64,000 nt of DNA from Chiloscyllium plagiosum (Eukaryota), in contig NC_057718.1 of the NCBI RefSeq assembly GCF_004010195.1, forward strand, positions 64,653,123 to 64,717,122, in the 5' to 3' direction. Shown here one piece after another: positions 4,088 through 58,802 of the stretch. The translations under genes were made by a program, and so were the position numbers. A model generated the notes under the pieces. It searched no databases, had not been told where the DNA came from, and saw only the letters and a program-made list of their open reading frames with translations. How positions within the stretch are numbered: position 1 is the first letter of the stretch; the number at the start of each line of letters is the position of its first letter.

Positions 4088-4262
4088 AAAGCAGAAAGAA
4101 CTGCAGGTGCTGAAAATCAGACACAAAAATAGAAATTGTTGAAAAAGCACAGCAGGTCTGGCAGCATCTGTTGAGAGAAATCAGAGATAACGTTTTGAGT
4201 CAAGTGATCCTTCCTCAGAACTAGTCACTCAAATCAAAATGTTAACTTTGATTTCTCGCCAC
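4088..4262. mobile_element. older Penelope-terminus insertion with degenerate hammerhead
   Basis: TSD AATTTGTTGATA at 4076-4087 and 4263-4274. Minus strand reads agtt-CTGAGGA..AAAA-c-gtt, followed by a short inverted arm. Confidence 0.7.
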
Positions 4263-13434: not shown

Positions 13435-14500
13435 AGAAATTAAGAGCAGAAGTAGTCCATTCAACATTGACCCTGCTGGAACATTCAAGATGAGGATGGC
13501 TGATCCTCGATCTCATTGTCATATTTCTGCTTTCTCCTAACACCTCTTGATGCCTTTAAAATTTAAACATTTATGTATCTCTTTCCTGAATATGTTCAAT
13601 AACTTGACCTCCACAGCCTTGTATGGTCAAGAATTTAAGTGGTTCACTACTATCCAAGTGAAGAAATCTTTCTTCATCTCAGTCCTAAATGATCTAGTCC
13701 ATATCCTGAGATTGTGTCATTGGTTCTATACTGCACAACTTAGGAAAACATCATCTCTGCATCTAATTTTTCCAGACCTGTTAGTATTTTACATGTTTTA
13801 ATCAGATTCCCTCTCATTCTTCTGAACTCTAGTGAAAACAGGCTTTTCATAGGGCTGGAAATGTGTTGCTGGAGAAGCGCAGCAGGTCAGGCAGCATCTA
13901 GGGAACAGGAGAATCGACGTTTCGGGCATTAGCCCTTCTTCAGCCCTTCCCTAGATGCTGCCTGACCTGCTGCGCTTCTCCAGCAACACATTTCCATCTC
14001 TGATCTCCAGCATCTGCAGACCTCATTTTCTCTTCTCATAGGGCTGTCCTGCTAACCCCAGTATCAGCCTCCACTGCTCTCCCTCTATGGCAAGTGCCTC
14101 CTTGCTTAAGTAGGGAGACCAAAACTGTATTTAGTACTCTAGCTGTGGTTTCACCGAGGCTCTATATAACTACAGCGAGACATCCCCACTTCTGAACTAA
14201 AATCTTCTAGCAATGAAGACCAATTTACCATTTTCCATCCTAATTGCTTGCTGCACTTTTATATCTATTCCATTGACTGGTGTACTAGGACACAGAGATC
14301 CCTTATACATCCACGCTTCTCATATCACAATTTATTTTTCTATTTTCCATACTGAAGTGTATAACTGTATATTTAGCGGTATTGTACTGGATCTGCCCTG
14401 TGTTTGTCCACTCCCTCGAGTCGTCTCAATCATCTTGAAGCCTCATTGCATCCTCATTACAGCTCAGATTCCCAACCAATTTTGTGTCATCAGCGAACGT
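13435..14500 (-). mobile_element. CR1 LINE 3' fragment (interrupted by the palindromic element at 13854)
   Basis: CR1 RT C-terminal and 3' UTR motifs on the minus strand. Confidence 0.75.
13854..14035. mobile_element. Penelope-terminus palindromic insertion with intact hammerhead core on the minus strand
   Basis: TSD TCATAGGGCTG at 13847-13857 and 14036-14046. Minus strand CTGAAGA-a-gggc-taat-gccc-GAAA-c-GTC at 13943-13916. Confidence 0.88.
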
Positions 14501-29277: not shown

Positions 29278-29477
29278 AACCAGACTCAAGACAGGTAGGC
29301 AGGAGGCTGGAAGAACACAGCAAGCCAGGTAGCATCAGGAGGTTTAGAAGTCAATGTTTTGGATGTAACCCTTCTTCAGGACTGGTGTTGGGTGTAGGGG
29401 GAGCTGCAGATAAAGGGAGAGGTGGGGGTAGTTTGGTGAAGAGGGGATAGGTGAAGACAGGTGGAGGGTATGACCTG
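29278..29477 (-). mobile_element. Penelope terminal repeat variant with degenerate hammerhead
   Basis: Minus strand agtc-CTGAAGA-a-gggt-tac-atcc-AAAA-c-att-gact at 29383-29349. Confidence 0.7.
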
Positions 29478-30274: not shown

Positions 30275-30672
30275 GGAGGAGAAAGTGAGGTCTGCAGATG
30301 CTGGAGATCAGAGCTGAAAATGTGTCGCTGGAAAAGCGCAGCAGGTCAGGCAGCATCCAGGGAACAGGAGAATCGACGTTTCGGGCATAAGCCCTTCTTC
30401 AGGAATGAGGAAACCACCTTCCTAACCTGCAATCTTCTTCCTGACCTCTCTGCCCCCACCCCAGTCTGACCTATCACCCTCACCTTGACCTCCTTCCACC
30501 TATCGCATTTCCAACGCCCCTCCCCCAAGTCCCTCCTCCCTACCTTTTATCTTAGCCTGCTGGGCACACTTTCCTCATTCCTGAAGAAGGGCTTATGCCC
30601 GAAACGTCAATTCTCCTGTTCCCTGGATGCTGCCTGACCTGCTGCGCTTTTCCAGCGACACATTTTCAGCTC
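30275..30672. mobile_element. Penelope inverted terminal-repeat insertion with two opposed hammerhead cores
   Basis: TSD GCTCA(G/C)AATAATTA at 30261-30274 and 30669-30682. Hammerhead cores at 30581-30608 (+) and 30402-30375 (-). Confidence 0.9.
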
Positions 30673-34023: not shown

Positions 34024-34256
34024 AAACAAAAATGGAAATTGCTGGAAAAGCTCAGCAGGCCTGGCAGCATCAGTGAACAGACATCAGAACCAACATTTCA
34101 GGTTGAGTGATCCTTCCTCATTCTGAATGAGGGAGGGTCACCTGACCCAAGACATTAACTCTGATTTCTCTCCACAGATGCTGCCAGATCTACTGAGATT
34201 TTCCAGCAACTTCTATTTTGTTTCTGATTTACAGCATCTGCGGTTCTTTCAGTTTT
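34024..34256. mobile_element. old palindromic Penelope-terminus insertion
   Basis: TSD AATA(C/T)ACATCTTAT at 34010-34023 and 34257-34270; inverted arms around ~34120. Confidence 0.78.
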
Positions 34257-37860: not shown

Positions 37861-38066
37861 AGCTAAAAATGTGTTGCTGGTAAAGCGCAGCAGGTCAGGC
37901 AGCATCCAAGGAGCAGGAGAATTGATGTTTTGGACATGAGCCCTTCTTCAGGATCATGCCCGAAATGTTGATTCTCCTGCTCCTTGGATGCTGCCTGACC
38001 TGCTGCGCTTTTCCAGCAACACATTTTCAGCTCTGATCTCCAGCATCTGCAGCCCTCACTTTCTCC
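37861..38066. mobile_element. palindromic Penelope-terminus insertion
   Basis: TSD TGTGTAA(A/C)TAGCTA at 37852-37865 and 38067-38080. Confidence 0.85.
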
Positions 38067-38296: not shown

Positions 38297-39455
38297 GAGT
38301 GTGTTTTTGGGAAAACACAGCAGGTCAGGCAGCATCTAAAGAGCAGGAGAATCAACGTTTCAGGCATAAGCCCTTCAACAGGAATGAGGCTTGTGGGTCG
38401 GGCTGAGAGATAAATGGGAGTGGAGTGGGGTTGGGAAGGTAGCTGAGAAAGCGATAGGTGGATGAAGATGAGGGAGAAGGTGATAGGTCAGAGGGGGGAG
38501 TGATGGACATGTCTGGAGGGTGGTGCCAAGTTGAAGGCTTGGGACTAGGATAATGTGGGGGGAAGGGAAATGAAAGAGCTGTTGAAATCCACATTTTTTC
38601 CGTGTGGTTACCAGGACCCAAGGCGAAATATGAGGCGTTCTTCCTCCAGGCATCGGGTGGTAATGGTTTTGCGGTGGAGGAGGTCCAGGACCTGCATGTC
38701 CTTGATGGAGAGGGAGGGGGAGTTGAAGTGTTCAACCACAGGGCAGTGGGGTTGGTGGCTGAGGGTGTCCCAGAGATGTTTTCTGAAACAATCCACAAGA
38801 AGGCGTCCTGTCTCCCCAATGTAGAGGAGACCACATTGGATGCAACGGATGCAGTAGATGACATTTGTAGAGGTACAGGTAAATTTCTGATGGATGTGGA
38901 AGGATCCCTTGGGGCCTTGGACGGAGCTGAGGGGATTGGTGTTGGCGCAGGTTTTGCACTTCCTTTGGAGGCAGGGAATGGTGCCGGGAGTGGGCTGTGG
39001 GTTGGTGTGGAGTGTGGATCTGATGTGGGAGTTGCGGAGAGAATGGTCTCTCCGGAACGCTAATAGGGGTAGGGAGGGAAATATATCTTTGGTGGTGGGG
39101 TCCGTGTGGAGGTGGCGGAAGTGGGGAGGTAGCGGAGGATTTTGTGCTTTGTGCGGAGGTTGGTGGGGTGGAAGGTGAGGACGGGGGGTTCTGTCCTTGT
39201 TGCGTTGAGTGGCGTTGGGTTCAAGGGCAGTGGTGCATTAAGTGGAGGAGATGTGCTAGAGGGCATTGTCAACCATAAAGGAAGGGAAGTTACGAACATG
39301 GAAGAAGGAGTTCATCTGGAACATTCTGAGGTGGAATTGGTCATCCTAGGAACAGATGCAGTGGTGGCGGAGGATGTGGGAATAAGGGATGGTGTTGTTA
39401 CAGGAGGTAATGTGGGAGGAAGTGTAGTCTAGGCAGCTGTGGGAGTCGGTGGGCT
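38297..39455 (-). mobile_element. Penelope (Neptune-type) 3' fragment with GIY-YIG endonuclease and terminal repeat
   Basis: PVLTFHPTNL, FRKHLWD, VVEHFNSPS, RCLEEERLIFRLG, followed by the terminal repeat. Confidence 0.88.
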
Positions 39456-46500: not shown

Positions 46501-46558
46501 CTGGATCTACTCAATGTATCTGTAAATAGAAGACGACAATAGGAGTAGTTTGTAGGTC

Positions 46559-46781
46559 GAAAAGTTTGGCGTTGGAAAAGCACAGCACGTTAGGCAGCAT
46601 CCAAGGAGAAGGGGAATCAATGTTTCGGGCATAAGCCCTTCATCAGGAATGTGACATTCCTGAAGGGCTTATGCCCAAAATGTCAATTCTCTGGCTCCTC
46701 GGATGCTGCCTGACATGCTGTGCTTTTCCAGCGGCACACTTTTTGACTCTGATCTCTGGCATCTGCAGTCCTCACTTTCTC
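46559..46781. mobile_element. palindromic Penelope-terminus insertion
   Basis: TSD GTAGTT(T/A)GTAGGTC at 46545-46558 and 46782-46795. Minus-strand CTGATGA..GAAA core begins at 46646. Confidence 0.85.
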
Positions 46782-48175: not shown

Positions 48176-49080
48176 ACTGATATGGCTCGTCCAGTCAGTT
48201 TCTTGTCAATGGTAACCTTTCAGGATATTGATATTGGAGATTTCAGTGATGGTAATGCTATTGAGTTGATGGCCTATGAGTATTATCATTAGACTATTAA
48301 TCCAGAGGCCTAGGTTATATTCTGGGGACCTACGTTCTGCTCTTCGGATGCTGCCTGAACTGCTGTGCTTTTCCAGCATCACTAATCCAGAATTTGGTTT
48401 CCAGCATCTGCAGTCATTGTTTTTACCAAATCCTGTCAGGGTAGATAGTGGAATTTGAATTCAATAAAAATCTAGAATTAAGAGTTTAACGGTGACTTTG
48501 AAAGCATTGCTGATTGTTAGCGAAACTTACCCGATTCAACAACGCTCTTCAAGGAAGGAAACTGCTCCTCTTACCATATCGAAAAGATAGGCAGGTGGGC
48601 AGAGGAGGTGGGGTTGCCTTATTAGTGAGGAACAAAATTAAAGTAATAGTAAAAAATGAATAGGGTCAGGTGGTGTAGAATCTGCATGTGTAGAATTGAG
48701 GAACTGCAAAGGTGAAAAAAACGTAGTTGGAGTTATGTAGTCCTTCAAACAGTAGTCAGGAGCTGGGGCACAAGATACACCAGGAGATAGAAATTGTGTG
48801 CAAGAAAGGCAAAGTTACAGTGATCATGGAGGTTTTCAATATGCAGGTGGACTGGGAAAATCAGGTTGGTGGTGATTCACAAGAAAAGGAATTTGTGGAA
48901 TGTCTACTAGATGGCTTTTTGGAGCAGCTTGTGGCGGGGCCTGTAGGGAACAGGCAGTACTGGATTTAATGCTGTGCAATGAGACAGACATGATAAGGGA
49001 GCTTAAGGAGAAGGAACCCTGAGGAAGTAGTGATCATAATATGAGTGAATTTACTCTGAAATTTGAGAAGGAGAAGATAG

Positions 49081-49383
49081 AGCTGAAACTTTATTGCTGG
49101 AACAGCACAGCAGGTCAGGCAGCATCTAGGGAACAGAAGATTCGACGTTTCGGGCACATGCCCTTCTTCAGGAATGAGCAGAGAGTGTTCAGCAGGAGAA
49201 GATAAAAGGTAGGGAGGAGGGACTTGGAGGAGTGCTGAACACTCTCTGCTCATTCCTGAAGAAGGGCATGTGCCCGAAACGTCGAATCTTCTGTTCCCTA
49301 GATGCTGCCTGACCTGCTGTGCTGTTCCAGCAATAAAGTTTCAGCTTTGATCTCCAGCATCTGCAGACCTCACTTTCTCCTCC
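49081..49383. mobile_element. very young palindromic Penelope-terminus insertion (perfect 114-bp arms, 38-bp spacer)
   Basis: Arms 49081-49194 and 49233-49346 are perfectly complementary. Perfect 14-bp TSD AAGGAGAAGATAGA at 49068-49081 and 49384-49397. Confidence 0.93.
49252..49287 (+). ncRNA. minimal type I hammerhead ribozyme motif (mirror copy at 49175-49140 on the minus strand)
   Basis: ATTC-CTGAAGA-A-GGGCA-TG-TGCCC-GAAA-C-GTC-GAAT: stem I ATTC/GAAT, stem II, palindromic ACGT in place of stem III, GUC cleavage triplet. Confidence 0.85.
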
Positions 49384-50508
49384 AAGGAGAAGATAGAATC
49401 AGAGGTAATGGTATTACAGCAGAATAAAGGCAAGTACAGAGGCATGAAGGAGGAGCTGGGCAGAATTGCAGGAAAGAACAGCAATGGCAGGAGTTACAGC
49501 AGAAATTCATCCCTAGGAAAAAGAAGCATGGCACAGGGTGGATGAGGCAACCATGGCTGACCAGGGAAGTCAGGGACTGCATAAAAGCAAAAGAGACAGC
49601 ATGTAATGTGGTGAAGGGCAGTGGGAAACCAGAAGATTGGGAAGCTTACAAAAGCAAGAGGGCAACAAAAAAAGAAATAAGGAGAGTGAAGATTAAACAT
49701 GCGGGTAAGCTAGCCATCAATATAAATGAAGACTGTAAGAGTTTCTTTTGATATATAAAGGGCAAAAGAAGGCAATATTGGACATTGGACCTTTGGAAAA
49801 TGACGCTGGAGAGATAGTAGTGGGGAACAAGGAAATGGCTGAGGAACTGAATAATTACTTTGCCTCAGTTTTCATGGTGGAAGACACAAATAATATCCCA
49901 AAAATTCAAGAGTCAGGGAGCAAAGCTGAGTATGGTGGCCATCACCAAGGAGAAGGTGGTAGAAAAACTGAATGGCCTGAATGCGGATAAATCAGCTGGA
50001 CCAGATGGACTACATCTAAAGGCGATAGCTGAAGAGATAGTGGAGGCATTAATGGTGACCTTTCATGAATCACTGGATTTGGGAGGGTCCCAGAGGATAC
50101 CTTTTTTTAAAAAGGGAATAAGGCAAAAGACAGAACATTATAGACCCATTTGCTTAATCTTGTTTGTGGAGGTTGCTTTTGAGGTAGATGGAACTTGAAT
50201 GACTGAGGAGATGGATTATTTGGAGGTTTGTGCACTTGCTCCAACCCCTTGACTTCACCTGTCCTCATTACTGACAAAATTGCTTGACACATTCAGTCCT
50301 TTCCGGAAAAAAACCTTTTCCATTTTGGGTAAGTTTCAGGCCAGGGTCTTCTCTGAATCTACTGGTGAGTTTGACTGTTCAGGGATGCTTAAAAGACATC
50401 ACTGAAGGAAACACTATAAAGATGGCTTAACCAGGCCTGGTAATAAAAGGAGCATAAATAATAAGAGAATGATAACAGATCTTCTCAGAATTCTGGCACT
50501 TGGTGTGC

Positions 50509-50928
50509 AAAGTTTGTGAGAAGATTTGTAGCTCGGGTGCTCGTTGTTGTGGTTCTGTTCACCGAGCTGGGAATTTGTGTTGCAGACGTTTCGTCCCCTG
50601 TCTAGGTGACATCCTCAGTGCTTGGGAGCCTCCTGTGAAGCACTTCTGTGATCTTTCCTCCGGCATTTGTAGTGGTTTGTCTCTGCTGCTTCCGGTTGTC
50701 AGTTCCGGTTATCAACAAACACATCGACCTGGACCCAATATACTGGCCACTGCAGTGGACAGCTGGAACTGACAACCGGAAGCGGCAGAGACAAACCACT
50801 ATAAATGCCAGAGGAAACATCACAGAAGTGCATCACAGGAGGCTCCCAAGCACTGAGGATGTCACCTAGACAGGGGACGAAACGTCTGCAACACAAATTC
50901 CCAGCTCGGCGAACAGAACCACAACAAC
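50509..50928. mobile_element. palindromic terminus of a second Penelope family (164-bp arms, 58-bp spacer)
   Basis: Arms 50543-50706 and 50765-50928. TSD ACTTGGTGTGC at 50498-50508 and 50927-50937. Spacer encodes INKHIDLDPIYWPLQ, like a Penelope ORF C-terminus. Confidence 0.88.
50850..50889 (+). ncRNA. minimal hammerhead ribozyme motif (mirror copy in the left arm)
   Basis: GCA-CTGAGGA-T-GTCACCT-AGAC-AGGGGAC-GAAA-C-GTC-TGC. Confidence 0.82.
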
Positions 50929-51220
50929 TTGGTGTGCCCTAGATGCTGTTTCCAGATATTGACCGTTCATTGCTTATGAACCAGTGATTAGAATGATTCC
51001 CAACATTTCCTTTATCAATGCTGAAGAAACATATTACAGGTCATCCATCCAGAAAAACCTCGAGTCACTCACCAAAGCATTCAACCAACTCTGAAAACAT
51101 TTCAGGGGTTTTTGCCTTCTGCACCTTATGACAAAGTTAATGTCATGTTTGATTGCTTATTATGTAAAGAAGTTTCTGCTTTAAATTTGCCTTCTATCTG
51201 TTTGAACTCACAATCCTTGA

Positions 51221-51520
51221 TAGAATCATAGAATCCCTGTATGCGAATAGAGACCTTTCAGCCCATTGAGTTTGCACTGATCCTCTGAAGAGCATCCCAT
51301 CAGCCCCACCTCATCTCCATAACGACATAGTTACCATGGTTAATTCACCTACCTGCATGTCCATGGACATTAGCGGGCAATTTAACATGGCCAATTTAGC
51401 TAACCTGCACATCTTTAGACTGTAGAAGGAAATGAGAACACTTGGCAGGGACACCCACACAGACACAGGGAGAACATGAAAACTCCACAAAGACAGTCAC
51501 CCAAGGCTGGAATCAAACCC
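51221..51520 (-). mobile_element. older HE1/V-SINE-like SINE, head truncated
   Basis: Central domain and tail match the other copies. Confidence 0.75.
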
Positions 51521-51789
51521 TATTCTGAATTCAAACTATCCTGGTTGTTTAGGTCTGTAACGTCAATGACCAATTTTGCTGTTATTCGCTACATTGGGCC
51601 AAATGTTCCCATATTTTGCTTAAATATCAATTTTGGGGACATTCCCTCTGTGAGCCCAATGTATGTCTTTGATGTTGATCTCATTAATTACCGATCCAGC
51701 CTCCATGTGTTGTTTTTGCACTATCTTGCAGTCAGTAAAGGCTGATGTGCTTGCCAGAGCCGGGCTCTTTCATTGTTTACGACATGGGC

Positions 51790-52440
51790 ATTTTATTTAA
51801 AACCCAGCTGTGTTCCATTTTAAATGCTGTGAGCCCTTTACTGTGTTTGGCTGCACCAATCCAAAAGACAGCTAAGAGAGGAACATCAGTACTCCACTTT
51901 GTCAACAGAGACTTGGAGGTCCTACTGGATGGGATGATAGGGAGAAAGGCTGCTTTCTTTCCCCAGGACTGACAAAGGAGATCATAGTACCAATGCCACC
52001 AGCCTGGTCTGAAGTAGGCACCCAGGTCAGTGTAGTGTCCATGTTCTGGAGGAACGTACAGCAATTCTGTCAGCAGATTAATAACTTTCTGCAGTCCATA
52101 GGGTGACTGTCAATCTCCCTTCAATCTTGCACTCACTCTTATTCTGCCACTAAGAAAATCTCCGACTGCACCTCACAGTCTACCACCCTCATTATTACAT
52201 GCAGCATTTTCCATCACCCACTCTCACCAACGTCATTCACCAAACCATTAAGCCTTCCTGCCCTTTACCCTTCCTGCTCACTCATTGGGAACATCTCACC
52301 ACCTTTCCTGTATCACACCACCAATAACATCTTTTCCAACCATTTCCATCTCACTCAAAAACCCTCTTTTTCTTATTGCAGGAGGAAACAATAATGCTGA
52401 AGGGCCATGACAGGTGGCAAGGTGGCTAAGGAGAGTATTC
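51790..52440 (+). mobile_element. possible Myb/SANT-like (Harbinger-associated) gene remnant
   Basis: FVNRDLEVLLDGMIGRKAAFFPQD resembles a Myb-like N-terminus. ttattgcag acceptor at ~52381 is followed by a degenerate TGG-like motif. Confidence 0.4.
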
Positions 52441-52874
52441 TTGAAATTGTAGAGAACTACGGCCACTCATGTGGTGTTGCTGTTATCTTTTATTACAGAA
52501 CTGGAAAGTGAAGAAAGAACAGCAAACATGCTGCATTTGAATTTGGTATGAAATAAGATCTGCTTATCTTTGGATCAGCAACTAATCTATAGTCACCGAG
52601 TGATATGTTTACTCAACTCTAATCTCTAAGAAGTGTGGTGTCGATTGAGTCCTGTCTGGCTTGATGAACTCAAAGTTACATCACTCGATAATGGTGTAAA
52701 TAATGTTCCTTCTGCTGTTTTTCCTCAGAAGACTACTGCTGCTGCCCCAGATCTTCAGCATCCATCACATTCCCTCTTTGTCTGTTTCAGTTATGCAGAG
52801 CACAGCTCCCTAGGATTATTCTGCCCACTCTGTCTGAATTTTACTATGTGGCTTCTCCATATATTCAAGTAAGT

Positions 52875-54047
52875 GAATACTATCTCCGGTAACTGACCCA
52901 ACACAGACATCTATTTCAAACCCACTGACTCACACAGCTACCTTAACTACACCTCCTCCCACCCCCGCCTCATGTTTAAAAAAAAGTGATCACTTACTCC
53001 CAATTCCTCTGCCTCTGCCTCTGCCTCTGCCATATCTGCTCCCAGGTGCAGCAACTCCACTCCAGGACATCCCAGATCATCAATAATGCCCTCCATCACA
53101 TCTCTTCCACTTCCTGCATCTCCATCTCCATCCCCCCAACTGCAACAAGGACACAACACCCCTGGTCCTCACATTCCACCTCAACGCATTATCCTCCACC
53201 ATTTTTGCCAACTACAATCAGACCCCATCACCAAAAACATATTTCCCTCCCCACCCTTATCTGTATTCCGCTAAGACCATTCCTTCTGCGACTCCTTCGT
53301 TCGGTCCAAATTCCTCACCCAGCACCTTGCCCTGCCACCACACAAGGTGCAAAACCTATGCCCACACATCCCCCTTCACCTCCATCCAAGACCATAGAGA
53401 GTCATTTCAACTCTGGCAGAAATTTTCCTGCACATCCTCTCATCTTATTTACTGCATCCGTTGCTCTCAATGTGGTATCCTCTACATCAGCCAACTCATG
53501 GAGCGATTCAGGGAACATCTCTGATCTGCATGCACCAAACAACCCCATCGCCATGTAGCCAACCACTTCAACTCCCCCTCACATTCCCCCAAGGACATGC
53601 AAATCCTGGCCCTCTTCCGCTGCCAATCAGTCACCCACCAAGTGGAGGAAGTATGCCTCATCTTCTGCCTTGGGACCCTTCAACCACTTGGCATCAATAT
53701 TGACTTCACCAGTTTCCAAATCTCCCCACCCCTCATGTCATCCCAGATCCAACCTTCCCACTCAACACCAGCCTCTTGACCTACCCTACCTATCCATCTT
53801 CATTCTAACCTATGCACTCCACCCTCCCCATTGATCTGCCATAATCACCTCCCACTTGCATCCACGTACTGTCATCCCATCTGCCTCCTATTTATCTCTC
53901 AGCCCCCTTCTTCCTTCACATTACTCATGAGGGCTTATGCCCGAAATGTCATATCTCCCGTTCCTCGGATACTGCCAGACCTGTGCTTTTTTCAGTGCCA
54001 CACTTTTTGACCCTGACACTCCAGCATCTGCAGTTATCATTTTCTCC
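52875..54047 (+). mobile_element. Penelope (Neptune-type) fragment: RT end, Cys linker, GIY-YIG, terminal repeat
   Basis: TDIYFKPTDSHSYL, CHHTRCKT, LIYCIRCSQCGILYI, EEVCLIFCLGTLQPLGINIDF. Confidence 0.9.
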
Positions 54048-54544
54048 TACTATCTTTAGGAGGCTTATTATCTACTCCTTGATGGCTCTAATGGAAGAAG
54101 AATGGACTGTACCGTATCTGTGCCTGGCCTCAGTAAAGAGATTACATAACAGAGTCATCAACTATGATTGAAGAGGGTAGCCCTTATCTCCGAGCATCCA
54201 TCTTTGTAACGCATCCAGCTCTTAGAATAAAACAGTAGCCTGAAAATTATCAACATATCGGTATCATGGCTGCTTCCAGACTACCTAGTACAGATTTCGA
54301 AAATGTAATAATGATGATCACAGATCATTTGGACATTGAAAAGGTAGAGGCCTTTTCCATTAATGAGTTCAGTCATATTATGGAATGGTGTTTTTTAATG
54401 TGGCAAGTATACAACCTCATACCTGGGGATATCAGTTATTTTGATAAAAAGCATTGCACTGGTTGCATCACTGATCTTGTCATAGGGAAACAAGATGGAA
54501 TGGTATGATCTGGCACAGATATAATCAATGATAGCTTTCATACA

Positions 54545-55138
54545 TGTTATGGACCAAGCCAGACCCCCTCAAATCATTTCAAGAAGATAGCCCAGATTCT
54601 AACTTTTTTAGTTGTTTTAAGCAGGTGTAGAGTGGATATTCCAGAAGAGATGCAGCTGACCCAACCACTTAGTTTTAAACAAAACAGAATTTATTTGCAA
54701 AGTTACTGAATGAAACACCGATAAAGGTGAACAGAATATAGAATAACTTAACTATTTAAAAACCCAATTAATCCTATTGAAACTTCATGATACTGTTCTA
54801 AATACTTGTAACAGTCCCCATAAATACCCCCTTGGCAAAAAGGTAAAATGTTCTTACATAAGAGATGTCAGTGAGAAAGAGGATCAGCATAGAACTGCTT
54901 CTTTGACCAGCAGCCTCAAAACTGACTGCTTGCTAAAACAAAACTGGAGAAAAGCTGAGCTGGGAGAACTGGCCACTCCCCTTTCATTTTCAAGTTTCTT
55001 TTGTCTGAGACAGTGTCTGTTAGCTATAATCAAATTGGCCCTAAAACCCATACATACTTCGGAACTTCTGTCTTTACGATCCCATTGAAAAACAGACCAA
55101 AGACAACATAACTTTCTTAAAGGAGCAGCATTGTCACA
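54545..55138 (-). mobile_element. LTR of a Gypsy element (same family as 28548-29177)
   Basis: TGTTAT...GTCACA termini, adjacent to the internal pol region. Confidence 0.85.
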
Positions 55139-56900
55139 CCTGCCCACTTAGAAAAGAACCATCAATATATAAAGATGGCTTCATTTAAAAACCCTTAGTG
55201 TTACACTGTTAGTACACTACAACACCCATATACATTACATTGACTATAAACATACAAACATGTGCTACTAGATTCTATTTCAGTCCGTTTACTTCTGCCA
55301 CCGAACACCTTCATTTCTCATCCAGCTGCAATCATGTTTTCTTGTCCTGCCACATGCACAATTTTCAAATTGAATGGCTGTAACAACAAACTCTATCTAG
55401 ACAGTCTGGAATTTTTGTCCTTAAATTTCTCCACAAACATCACTCGGTTATGATCAGTTTATATGATTGTCAGATACATTTCTGGTAACATAAACATTGA
55501 AATATTTTAATGCCAACACCAAGCTCAAAGTCTCCTTCTCAACTGTCAAATATTTCTGCTGATGGATGTTTGATTTCCTGAAGAAATATCCGATGGGTCT
55601 TTCTATCGTCTTCCTGTAAGAGCACAACACCAACAGCCACATCACTTGCACCTTGAGTGGCTTTGCATAATTAGATGTGGCTAACCTTGGGGCAGTGTTT
55701 AACACAGCTTTCAGACTGTCAAATGCCTTCTGACAGTCTGCTGTCCACAGAAAACTCTTGCCTTTCTTTAGTAATTCAGTTAGTGAAACAGCCAGACTGC
55801 TAAAATTTGATATGAATATTTGATAAAACTCACTCAATATCAAAAATCATAATACTGCTCTTTTTTGATGATGGTATAGGAAACTTCCCAAATACCTTTG
55901 TTTTTGCATTCCATGAGGCCATTTGTCAATGTCAAATAACATGGCCCAGGAAGGTGACCTGGACTTTGGCAAATTTACTTTTATCACCAAGCCTGCCTCC
56001 CAAAGTCGATCGAATAATTCTGATAAATGTTGCAAATGTCCCTTCCATGTGTGACTAAAAATCACCAGGTCATCTATCTATATCTATGACAGAATTCGGT
56101 AATCCGGAAATGACTTTATCGGTTAGTCTCTGAATTGTGGCTCGCACCATGTTGAAACCCTCTCTCTTCATGCTTTCAAACCTGGTGAGTTTCTCAAATA
56201 ATTTCTGCTTTTGTTTGTGAAAATAAAATCAAGTTTTAAATTCTAATTTTGCTTTTCTTTTCAACTTTATTTTCTCTCTCAATTGCCTTATTTCTATATT
56301 CAGAAAATAATTGTTTTTTTATTCACTTTCTTTATGTTGTCCATACTCTAACTCACATCAAACCCCAATATCTGAAGTTTGTGGATCTACAATGGCTCCT
56401 GTTTCAGCAAAGCTTTAGTTTTAAAACCCTCATAGTTTACATCCCTCCAGGACCTCACTCTTCCTTATTTCTTTCAATTTTGATATGGCCATATACTACA
56501 AGTTCTGCCTTCTTGACATTTCTGATTGAAATCCTTCCATCATCTGTGTCTTTGGCTGCCTATGTACTAATCTCTAGAATTTGCTCCCTAACTGTCTGTG
56601 CTCCAGTCCCTCTTTTTCATTCTTTACTGGAATAAAACCCTACTGCTTTTAACCAAAAATGTAGTTAACTAGTCTAAACTTCCCTTGTGTGATATCAGTG
56701 ACAAAGGTTGTTTGCTAACGCACATGAGACATTTCAGTACAAATTGTAATCCCACCATACTGTTCTGTAAAATCTTCCTTCCAGTCTGGTTTGACACCAT
56801 CACCTTGATAACTTGTTATGATCTCTCTAACTTAATTAGTTTGTACAGTTTTGGACTACTTGTTACTTTGGTTAGACCCTCCGTATGCAACTCTTATATC
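55139..56900 (-). mobile_element. Gypsy internal region remnant (RT/RNase H)
   Basis: IFSHTWKGHLQHL, WTADCQKAFDSLKAVL, RPIGYF, YLTVEKETLSLVLAL. Confidence 0.85.
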
Positions 56901-57164
56901 TAACATGTTATTTCAGTCGTTGGTTTGTTTCCAATACCATCTTTTTTTTTTAGCTTTTTGTAATTATCTCTTTGCCTCAATTAATCAGATTATGGGCCAT
57001 CCCTACAGATGTTATTCAGCTGTTGATACTTTACTCACACCTTCTGACACTCTTGATCATCTGCAGAAACCTGTTATTTGGCCTGTTGACACCCCACTCA
57101 CACCATTTGTATGATCTTTTCATCTCTCTGATTATAAAGTCTGTGCTTGGATGCTGTCTTCACT

Positions 57165-57201
57165 TCATCTGATGAAGGGGCACCGCTTCGAAAGCTTGTG
57201 A
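57165..57201 (+). ncRNA. minimal hammerhead motif in a third Penelope-terminus variant
   Basis: TCAT-CTGATGA-A-GGGGC-ACC-GCTTC-GAAA-G-CTT-GTGA, with palindromic AAGCTT in place of stem III. Confidence 0.72.
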
Positions 57202-58342
57202 TTTCAAATAAACCTATTGGACTATAATCTGGTGCAATGTTCCTTTTGACCTTGTCCACCCCAATCAAACACTGGCACCTCCACATCACTACAATAACAG
57301 TGTTATCCAAAAGTAAGTTCTTGTCATTGTCCTCTGTTTCTTTGTCAATCCTTAATGCAGAGTCATCTGGACTTGAAATGTTGCCTTGCTTTCTCTCCAT
57401 GAATGCTGCTTGACCTGCTGTGGTCTCCAAGATTTTTGTTTTCAGCTTAAATCTCGTGGGTTAAGGAGTTATCTTGTTAGCCCGTTCAGTCATACTGATG
57501 CAAATGCTGTCATTGTTCTATTATTAGCTTGTGCTTCTAGTGAGAGATTGTCAGAATTACTTTTTAAATTGAAGTGTGCAGGAACATAATCTATCAATGT
57601 GAGATGCTCTGGTACAACTAGATTTGACATATTAATTTGTGAGACAATGGGGTCTGCAGATGCTGGAGAAATCAGAGTTGATGAAGCATAGCGATGGAAA
57701 AGACACAGGTCAAGCAGCATCCGAGGGACAAGAGAGTGAACGTTTCAGGGAGGACCTGCTTCGTTATGGACCCGAGGTTGTGAAATTTACTGCCCTCCTC
57801 CTTTGATATATCAATTTACATCACTGCAAGTAATAGAAGATTCTTACACAAGGATGGCAATGTTTTGATCTCACCATTGTTAAAATGGTACTTGACGACA
57901 AAGCTTTGAGATTATACTTGTAATGTCACTTCCAGTCACTCAATAGGTTTACTGCCTTGTACTTAGTTCCTGGTATTGGCTACCCTTTACAATATACAGT
58001 ACATAAGGAACCAACTTAGACTCAAACCATAAAGCAGAGTACTTTTAACACTCTGGTTTATGCTGGTTTGACCAAGTGATTTGACACACTGATCCTACAA
58101 TAAACAACCTGTTGCTGCCTCATTCCTGCACTTCCATAGTAAAATCCCTGTATGATAGATTCCAAACAATTATGAGAAATACAAATCGCTGGTCCTAATT
58201 AGTTGATTTTTTTAATTGCATTATCCGCATTGGTTAGCAGGCATTTAATTTCAAAGGAAATGTATAGCTTTGATACCAACTATAAAGATCATAGTTTAAC
58301 AACTTTTGACTGGTGTCAAAATGGCTCCGTTTAATTTTACAG

Positions 58343-58575: not shown

Positions 58576-58802
58576 GGAGAAAGTGAGGACTGCAGATGCT
58601 GGAGATCAGAATCAAGACTGTGGTGCTGGAAGAGCACAGCAGATCAGGCAGCAGCAGAGGAGCAGGAGAATCGACGTTTTGGTGTCAGCCATTCATCTGG
58701 AACTGTGAATCCCAATGAAAGTCTTATGCCCGAAACGTCGACTCTCCTGCTCCTCAGATATTCCTGACCTGCTGTGCTTTGCCAGCACCCCACTCTCAAC
58801 TC
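58576..58802. mobile_element. palindromic Penelope-terminus insertion (older)
   Basis: TSD TGATTT(G/T)TAACTTT at 58562-58575 and 58803-58816. Confidence 0.8.

Follow-up and report, generated by a model that had tools for sequence, protein, structure and literature searches.

Minimal type I hammerhead ribozymes have been described in the Penelope-like elements (PLEs) of metazoans (Cervera and De la Pena 2014, PMC4209133). According to that paper these ribozymes combine a type I core and a short helix I with an extra base between positions 9 and 10.1, a G10.1–C11.1 pair and a palindromic 15.2–16.2 pair; they fall into many consensus families per genome with covariation, include a U3–A8 variant in Schistosoma, and occur as opposite-strand pairs 100–700 bp apart. 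The same features recur in the PLEs of the shark Chiloscyllium plagiosum, which we analyzed in a stretch of 64,000 nucleotides (nt) of contig NC_057718.1 (positions 64,653,123 to 64,717,122; called the window below and numbered from its first letter) and in further stretches of the genome. The motifs are real and represent minimal type I hammerheads in the pseudo-long terminal repeats (pLTRs) of 5′-truncated PLEs. They are a new case of an already described motif class, and that class alone would be an ordinary finding. The key question is whether these weak ribozymes cut in animals, and for what. Very probably the fold was kept by selection in the source elements of three PLE lineages, where it likely cuts a share of the element RNA after the NUH triplet, whereas the copies in the window are likely inert.

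The features of the window on which the argument rests are the following.

49068–49081, plus strand: left target-site duplication of insertion A, 14 bp, identical to 49384–49397
49081–49232, minus strand: left arm of insertion A, a Neptune-like pLTR fragment reaching to about 62 nt 5′ of the core (inverted repeat I3, 114 nt, 100%)
49140–49175, minus strand: minimal hammerhead, mirror copy in insertion A; core start 49171, predicted cut after 49144
49233–49346, plus strand: right arm of insertion A, 5′-truncated 23 nt before the core
49252–49287, plus strand: minimal hammerhead of subfamily A1; stem I 4 bp, stem II 4 bp, palindrome ACGT, predicted cut between 49283 and 49284
49347–49383, plus strand: PLE tail of 37 nt, on the right arm of insertion A only
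49384–49397, plus strand: right target-site duplication of insertion A
50498–50508, plus strand: left target-site duplication of insertion B, 11 bp, identical to 50927–50937
50510–50542, minus strand: PLE tail of 33 nt, on the left arm of insertion B only
50543–50716, minus strand: left arm of insertion B, a Poseidon-like pLTR (inverted repeat I1, 174 nt, 94%)
50582–50621, minus strand: minimal hammerhead, mirror copy in insertion B; core start 50618, predicted cut after 50585
50710–50928, plus strand: right arm of insertion B, the C-terminal end of a PLE open reading frame (ORF; INKHIDLDPIY...) followed by the pLTR
50850–50889, plus strand: minimal hammerhead of subfamily B; stem I 3 bp, stem II seven columns with one mismatch, predicted cut between 50886 and 50887
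50927–50937, plus strand: right target-site duplication of insertion B
56867–57270, plus strand: old solo fragment of a pLTR from lineage C, the second Neptune-like lineage; similarity to its relatives about 83%, 5′ limit approximate
57165–57201, plus strand: minimal hammerhead of lineage C, palindrome AGCT; private decay at 57168, 57183 and 57188, predicted cut between 57197 and 57198
29349–29383, minus strand: decayed minimal hammerhead of lineage A, subfamily D, in a pLTR fragment at about 29297–29477; G12 and G16.2 lost at CpG
38611–39237, minus strand: GIY-YIG endonuclease relic with a CX4CXXC linker, upstream of a lineage A hammerhead at 38381 (Pfam GIY-YIG E 0.14, below the cut-off)

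A preliminary description of the window had recognized the core CUGANGA..GAAA..NUH with pairing stems at 49252–49287, 50850–50889 and 57165–57201 together with the decayed copy at 29383–29349 on the minus strand, and had predicted cuts after 49283 and 50886; all of these placements are correct. The core C3 U4 G5 A6 N7 G8 A9 / G12 A13 A14 A15.1 / U16.1 H17 is present at 49256, 49171, 50853, 50618 and 57169 and decayed at 29379. Helix III is absent and the 15.2–16.2 pair palindromic, as expected of minimal hammerheads, and the bulged base after A9 is accompanied by a 10.1–11.1 pair that is G–C in 11 of 12 subfamily majorities and G–U in subfamily B3. Some details had to be revised. Stem II at 49252, given as 5 bp, really has 4 bp and a 4-nt loop, since a fifth pair would leave a loop of 2 nt; the GTCACCT/AGGGGAC stem II pairs in six of seven columns, the remaining one being an A.G mismatch; and of the two palindromes proposed in place of stem III, ACGT was confirmed and AAGCTT at 57165 is in fact AGCT (15.1–16.1), of the same size as ACGT.

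A strict hammerhead descriptor found five matches in the window compared with a mean of 0.005 (maximum 1) in 200 dinucleotide shuffles, and 28 matches in 464 kb (the window plus 40 blind 10-kb stretches) compared with none in each of 20 shuffles. The Rfam scan yielded no hammerhead family among its 11 matches at E ≤ 10; its microRNA matches are the inverted arms. The descriptor misses the 50850 type because of the stem II mismatch of that type. It did not demand the 15.2–16.2 palindrome, and 24 of the 28 strict matches carry one (CG or GC), the other four having CA or TG. Altogether the window contains about 30 ribozyme-arm relics.

These motifs belong to three lineages, two of them Neptune-like (A, with 49252 and 29383; C, with 57165) and one Poseidon-like (B, with 50850). 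The preliminary description had counted at least three or four; the fourth falls away, since 29383 groups with 49252 by a common downstream tail (72% over 85 nt, E 4e-5). Further decayed A-lineage subfamilies with different stems lie at 4218 (minus), 18888 (plus), 57350–57422 (plus) and 57695–57749 (minus). The suggested identity as the minimal type I hammerhead of PLEs is borne out by linked GIY-YIG and reverse transcriptase (RT) coding relics, tails and target-site duplications. Longer copies of every lineage continue upstream into a GIY-YIG endonuclease frame, and relatives of lineage B contain RT and GIY-YIG motifs, one of them matching shark proteins (Chiloscyllium punctatum, 91–92%) with RVT_1 and PF26215 domains. 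Judged from relatives and fragments, the layout is that of EN+ PLEs, with an ORF for RT and C-terminal GIY-YIG upstream of the pLTR. Inside the window the relic at 38611–39237, upstream of the 38381 hammerhead, ties lineage A to a Neptune-like PLE.

A CX2-5CXXC linker before the endonuclease is associated with Neptune (PMC8557442). Among decayed copies with the endonuclease motif it is found in 6 of 14 of lineage A and in the single one of lineage C; 16 of 17 copies of lineage B are without such a zinc-finger linker and the single match is a neighbouring A element. In B, B2 and B3 the Poseidon ATG overlaps A9. The labels Neptune-like and Poseidon-like should thus be taken as motif-based assignments and not as positions in an RT tree. 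Two Pfam results weigh against the assignment to PLEs: five ORF fragments gave no match at E ≤ 0.01, and a set of nine fragments gave weak GIY-YIG and RVT_1 matches below the cut-off. Across 1.26 Mb, made up of the window and 120 blind stretches, we counted about 109 lineage A copies per Mb, which extrapolates to roughly 390,000 copies in the 3.56-Gb genome.

The preliminary description had read the changing stems as covariation, and across subfamilies this holds. In stem I 34 of 36 inner cells are paired across 12 subfamily majorities compared with 17.6 after the 3′ strands were redealt. Nine natural copies from lineages A and B, leaving C aside and counting stem I and the 3–8 pair only, have 88.9% of their cells paired with 13 two-sided changes; none of 500 shuffles scored as high and slid controls reached 18–44%, although relatedness among sequences inflates tests of this kind. 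The most telling single case is subfamily F, which carries U3–A8 instead of C3–G8 (six of six blind copies and the majority of 37). In lineage C the palindrome changes from CG to GC. The T residues at 57168 and 57188, in contrast, are private to that copy (C in the majority of 31 relatives) and do not count as covariation. Within single clades the signal is weak, and this speaks against too strong a reading: the six A-lineage subfamilies reach a modest p of 0.025 for stem I and 0.05 for stem II, the three Poseidon subfamilies are not significant (p 0.17 and 0.67), and neither are the two C subfamilies. The picture is also imperfect in A0 and A0p, which have a U.U mismatch in stem I, and at the G–U pair of B3.

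The preliminary description had further supposed that the RNA structure was under selection in these lineages. For the source elements this is supported by the subfamily pairing and the two-sided changes; for the copies after insertion it does not hold. The CpG at C11.1–G12 is intact in 5 of 26 D copies, 11 of 28 Cw copies and 14 of 26 B2 copies, similar to other CpGs in the same alignments, and the losses at G12 and G16.2 in subfamily D are the CpG decay seen family-wide. Since the catalytic G12 decays at the CpG rate, selection acted on source elements and not on the copies in the window.

The preliminary description did not record that the 49252 and 50850 hammerheads each occupy one of the two arms of an inverted insertion, that such an insertion has a target-site duplication and is tailed on one side, and that mirror hammerheads lie on the minus strand (cores from 49171 and 50618). 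Insertions A (49081–49383) and B (50510–50928) are head-to-head pairs with a tail of 33–37 nt on one arm; the 33-nt tail of insertion B also appears as loose RNA read ends behind 50928. Over all loci, 22 inverted-pair rows were compared: the tail is confined to one side in 21 of them, and 19 show a direct repeat of 7–15 bp (one A locus being counted twice). PMC3846280 and PMC8557442 describe such one-sided tails and direct repeats as the signature of PLEs. Lineage A and its relatives form additional head-to-head pairs at 364–539, 13851–14001, 30311–30672, 34029–34219, 37861–38032, 46556–46747 and 58624–58787. We also observed that 11 nt are common to the target site of insertion A (49068–49081) and the element's own spacer (49194–49204), at the truncation point of the right arm.

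For the whole insertions A and B hairpin energies of −239 and −344 kcal/mol are predicted, and the predicted pair probability of ribozyme stems I and II is 0.0 in both. The long hairpin is thus predicted to abolish the ribozyme fold, and as the paired motifs of A or B are on opposite strands they cannot form a dimer in cis. The truncated copies in the window are likely inert. Of 29 pairs of lineage A neighbours separated by no more than 500 nt, 23 have the head-to-head orientation and five are in tandem. In subfamily F (L201–L222, L116, L134, L148, L170, L186 and L188) nearly all copies begin 3–4 nt before the core, and the inverted junctions often contain short duplicated core pieces, as if the RT had re-primed at the template end.

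Lineage A copies tend to end near the 5′ edge of the ribozyme (92 of 166 in one set and 67 of 112, from −12 to +9 of the core, in another), while nine of ten lineage B copies reach more than 30 nt upstream. A single sharp start site in lineage A is not supported, as the peak of 5′ ends spans −12 to +9. An extra G, of the kind that a cap may leave, precedes the 5′ end in three of five lineage A copies at position −4 and in 4 of 15 among non-templated starts, counts that do not confirm such a mark. The 5′ strand of stem I resembles an RNA polymerase II initiator. PLEs have internal promoters (PMC2377424, PMC3846280), and run-off copies of a transcript leader are a plausible source of the short lineage A copies. 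The arms of insertion A itself, with 5′ ends at −62 and −23, are not of this short type.

The strongest hint at cleavage comes from fusions with U6 small nuclear RNA. At ten loci (seven of lineage A, one of B, two of C) U6 is joined to the element at offset 0 from the predicted cut. In a blind set of 48 Rfam-picked U6 matches (of 453,147 first-look candidates; 30 loci and 16 fetched stretches) five loci fuse U6 to a ribozyme arm, four of lineage A and one of the same young type as 50850 in lineage B, with the junction in all five at the base that directly follows the predicted cut; directed searches added three A and two C loci, which are not counted as blind. Among 112 ordinary young A copies, by comparison, just 2 begin at the cut and 67 in the 5′-end peak, into which none of the five blind fusions falls. 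All the fusions carry a run of five T, apart from one substitution. Their tails resemble those of different sub-subfamilies, which suggests independent events. The fusions of lineages A and C fall in sister subfamilies of the window motifs, A0 and A0p for 49252 and Cmain and Cgt for 57165. At L358, L363 and L365 the chimeras are head-to-head pairs with the U6 end on both arms, which suggests that one RNA, or one kind of RNA, served as the template for both arms.

Ligation of U6 to a 5′-OH end by RtcB fits these junctions best, and if a template switch at a cleaved end had produced them instead, cleavage would be implied all the same. It is therefore likely that such PLE ribozymes cut in living cells. 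We would go further only tentatively, with slightly less than even confidence, and propose that minimal PLE hammerheads cut in the shark germ line, with U6 at the scissile bond as a DNA record of the 5′-OH ends, that the Neptune-like ribozyme lies at the transcript 5′ end, where its cleavage would act as a self-decapping switch, and that the hundreds of thousands of 90–130-nt insertions may be run-off copies of the uncut leader made by internal priming.

A number of observations count against cleavage as we read it. No U6 fusion was found for A1 or Cw themselves in the 48 scored matches and the directed searches. Lineage B rests on one fusion locus, whose second arm differs in three of the first four bases, and a pattern search for U6 joined to B gave no exact match. 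Two blind U6 copies (L321, L325) join the interior of the Neptune-like endonuclease ORF at different places, and about 16 U6 copies have the start of a tRNA-derived short interspersed element (SINE) within 40 nt with variable junctions (L307, L314, L315, L319, L324, L327–L332, L360, L361, L364, L367 and L374), so that U6 chimeras can also arise in other ways. The RNA reads come from a single-cell poly(A) run of a species of the same label, of which 2% was read and which is poorly suited to the purpose; their depth is flat over both cuts (49283 and 50886), and neither starts nor ends of reads pile up there or at the presumed transcript start. The catalytic dimer of A is predicted to be no stabler than two monomers (−14.5 compared with 2 × −7.8 kcal/mol), and a stem II homodimer is favoured in the prediction (−26.4 kcal/mol). 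The dimer result agrees with the low in vitro activity reported in PMC4209133 and with the protein assistance reported for the Poseidon element PAc of Anolis carolinensis (Frangieh et al. 2024, PMC11167929). At L310 we also observed U6 followed by tRNA-like sequence.

Taken together, the following course of events would account for the data. The motif repeat of the source element runs upstream into the GIY-YIG/RT frame and ends in a PLE tail, and its stems and 3–8 core pair covary across subfamilies. Judging from the literature and the anatomy without helix III, the active fold would need a second copy, such as the other pLTR of a tandem transcript, or an element protein. Germ-line cleavage would then leave a 5′-OH end that is occasionally joined to U6, probably by RtcB, before reverse transcription. 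As most insertions span the cut, uncut RNA would be the usual template, and in lineage A the gathering of 5′ ends at the ribozyme 5′ edge may mark the transcript start. Transcripts of insertions A and B are predicted to fold into a hairpin of 114–174 bp that removes the ribozyme fold.

The alternative that survives best, although we consider it unlikely, is that the fold is kept for a non-catalytic role in element-protein binding, translation start or transcript start, and that the U6 junctions arose by template switching at a structural pause or by a host nuclease. It would explain the flat RNA depth, the abundance of A0 and A0p with their stem I mismatch and the many copies that span the cut, and it agrees with PAc, whose insertion in vitro needs no cleavage and for which no RNA-seq ends at the cut are reported (PMC11167929). 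Yet every catalytic core base is kept and the 3–8 pair covaries, the junctions lie exactly on the scissile bond in three lineages with differing flanks, and the blind fusions avoid the very peak at which ordinary copies stop. These points favour cleavage in the source elements.

It is far less probable that the copies studied here are host-domesticated ribozymes that process a host transcript. The cores of 49252 and 50850 are indeed intact, reads of the family are present in the RNA of the related sample, and non-CpG core sites vary less than the tails (48/2365 compared with 319/8081, or 2.0% and 4.0%). However, the intact copies are simply young, their arms agreeing at 100% and 94%; in old families G12 is lost as fast as other CpG sites are; and the inverted arms are predicted to mask the fold. 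The gap between core and tail was rejected as proof of selection on the copies, since base composition, the mixing of subfamilies and the choice of best hits all confound it. Least probable of all is that the motifs are independent non-LTR retrozymes (tandem, circle-forming) and not fragments of PLE pLTRs: most copies are short and non-coding and retrozymes derived from PLE pLTRs are reported in a chondrichthyan (10.64898/2026.07.22.740005), but the neighbour pairs are mostly head-to-head and not tandem units, longer copies continue into the PLE ORF, and the short helix I lacks the canonical loop.

Two features of the surroundings may be added. Insertion A is embedded in a decayed coding relic resembling a long interspersed nuclear element (LINE) at 48600–50200, which we take to be CR1-like, and two SINEs in inverted orientation, of the tRNA-derived type that is common in sharks and presumably HE1, lie at 1755–2837.

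The U6 fusions at the cut offer a genomic read-out of cleavage that is open to direct assay by 5′-OH mapping and RtcB ligation, and the subfamilies, which include a natural U3–A8 core and stem lengths from 2 to 4 bp, provide ready material for telling dimer from protein-assisted activity. Our literature search, which covered papers outside subscription, found none on shark PLE hammerheads (the supplements of PMC4209133 may list shark motifs) and none on U6 fused at a PLE ribozyme cut. For the metazoan ribozymes of PMC4209133, the accessible text names no sharks and gives no genomic trace of cleavage in vivo.

The inverted PLE pLTR insertions described earlier (Arkhipova et al. 2013, PMC3846280; Craig et al. 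2021, PMC8557442) are likewise head-to-head 5′-truncated copies with a tail of 30–40 bp at one end, and have target-site duplications of 8–10 bp where we find 7–15 bp. The insertions studied here differ in being tiny (316 and 418 bp) and in the clustering of lineage A 5′ ends at the ribozyme edge. In PAc the ORF also begins at hammerhead stem II; correspondingly, the likely start ATG of the 50850 type at 50859 overlaps core position A9. Shared features are an AC-rich 3′ end, which may be followed by a tail, the lack of RNA-seq ends at the cut and, here probably, the use of uncut RNA as the main substrate. The distance from the A of the ATG to the cut is 28 nt here and 26 nt in PAc, and the arm extends about 70 nt into the ORF here and 111–118 nt in PAc (PMC11167929). 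The chimeras of U6 and LINE-1 made by RtcB (Moldovan et al. 2019, PMC6789731) likewise join the U6 3′ end with a short T run directly to retroelement RNA, for which a 5′-OH is needed. In the shark the partner is a PLE, and the junction is not variable as with LINE-1 but fixed at the ribozyme cut.

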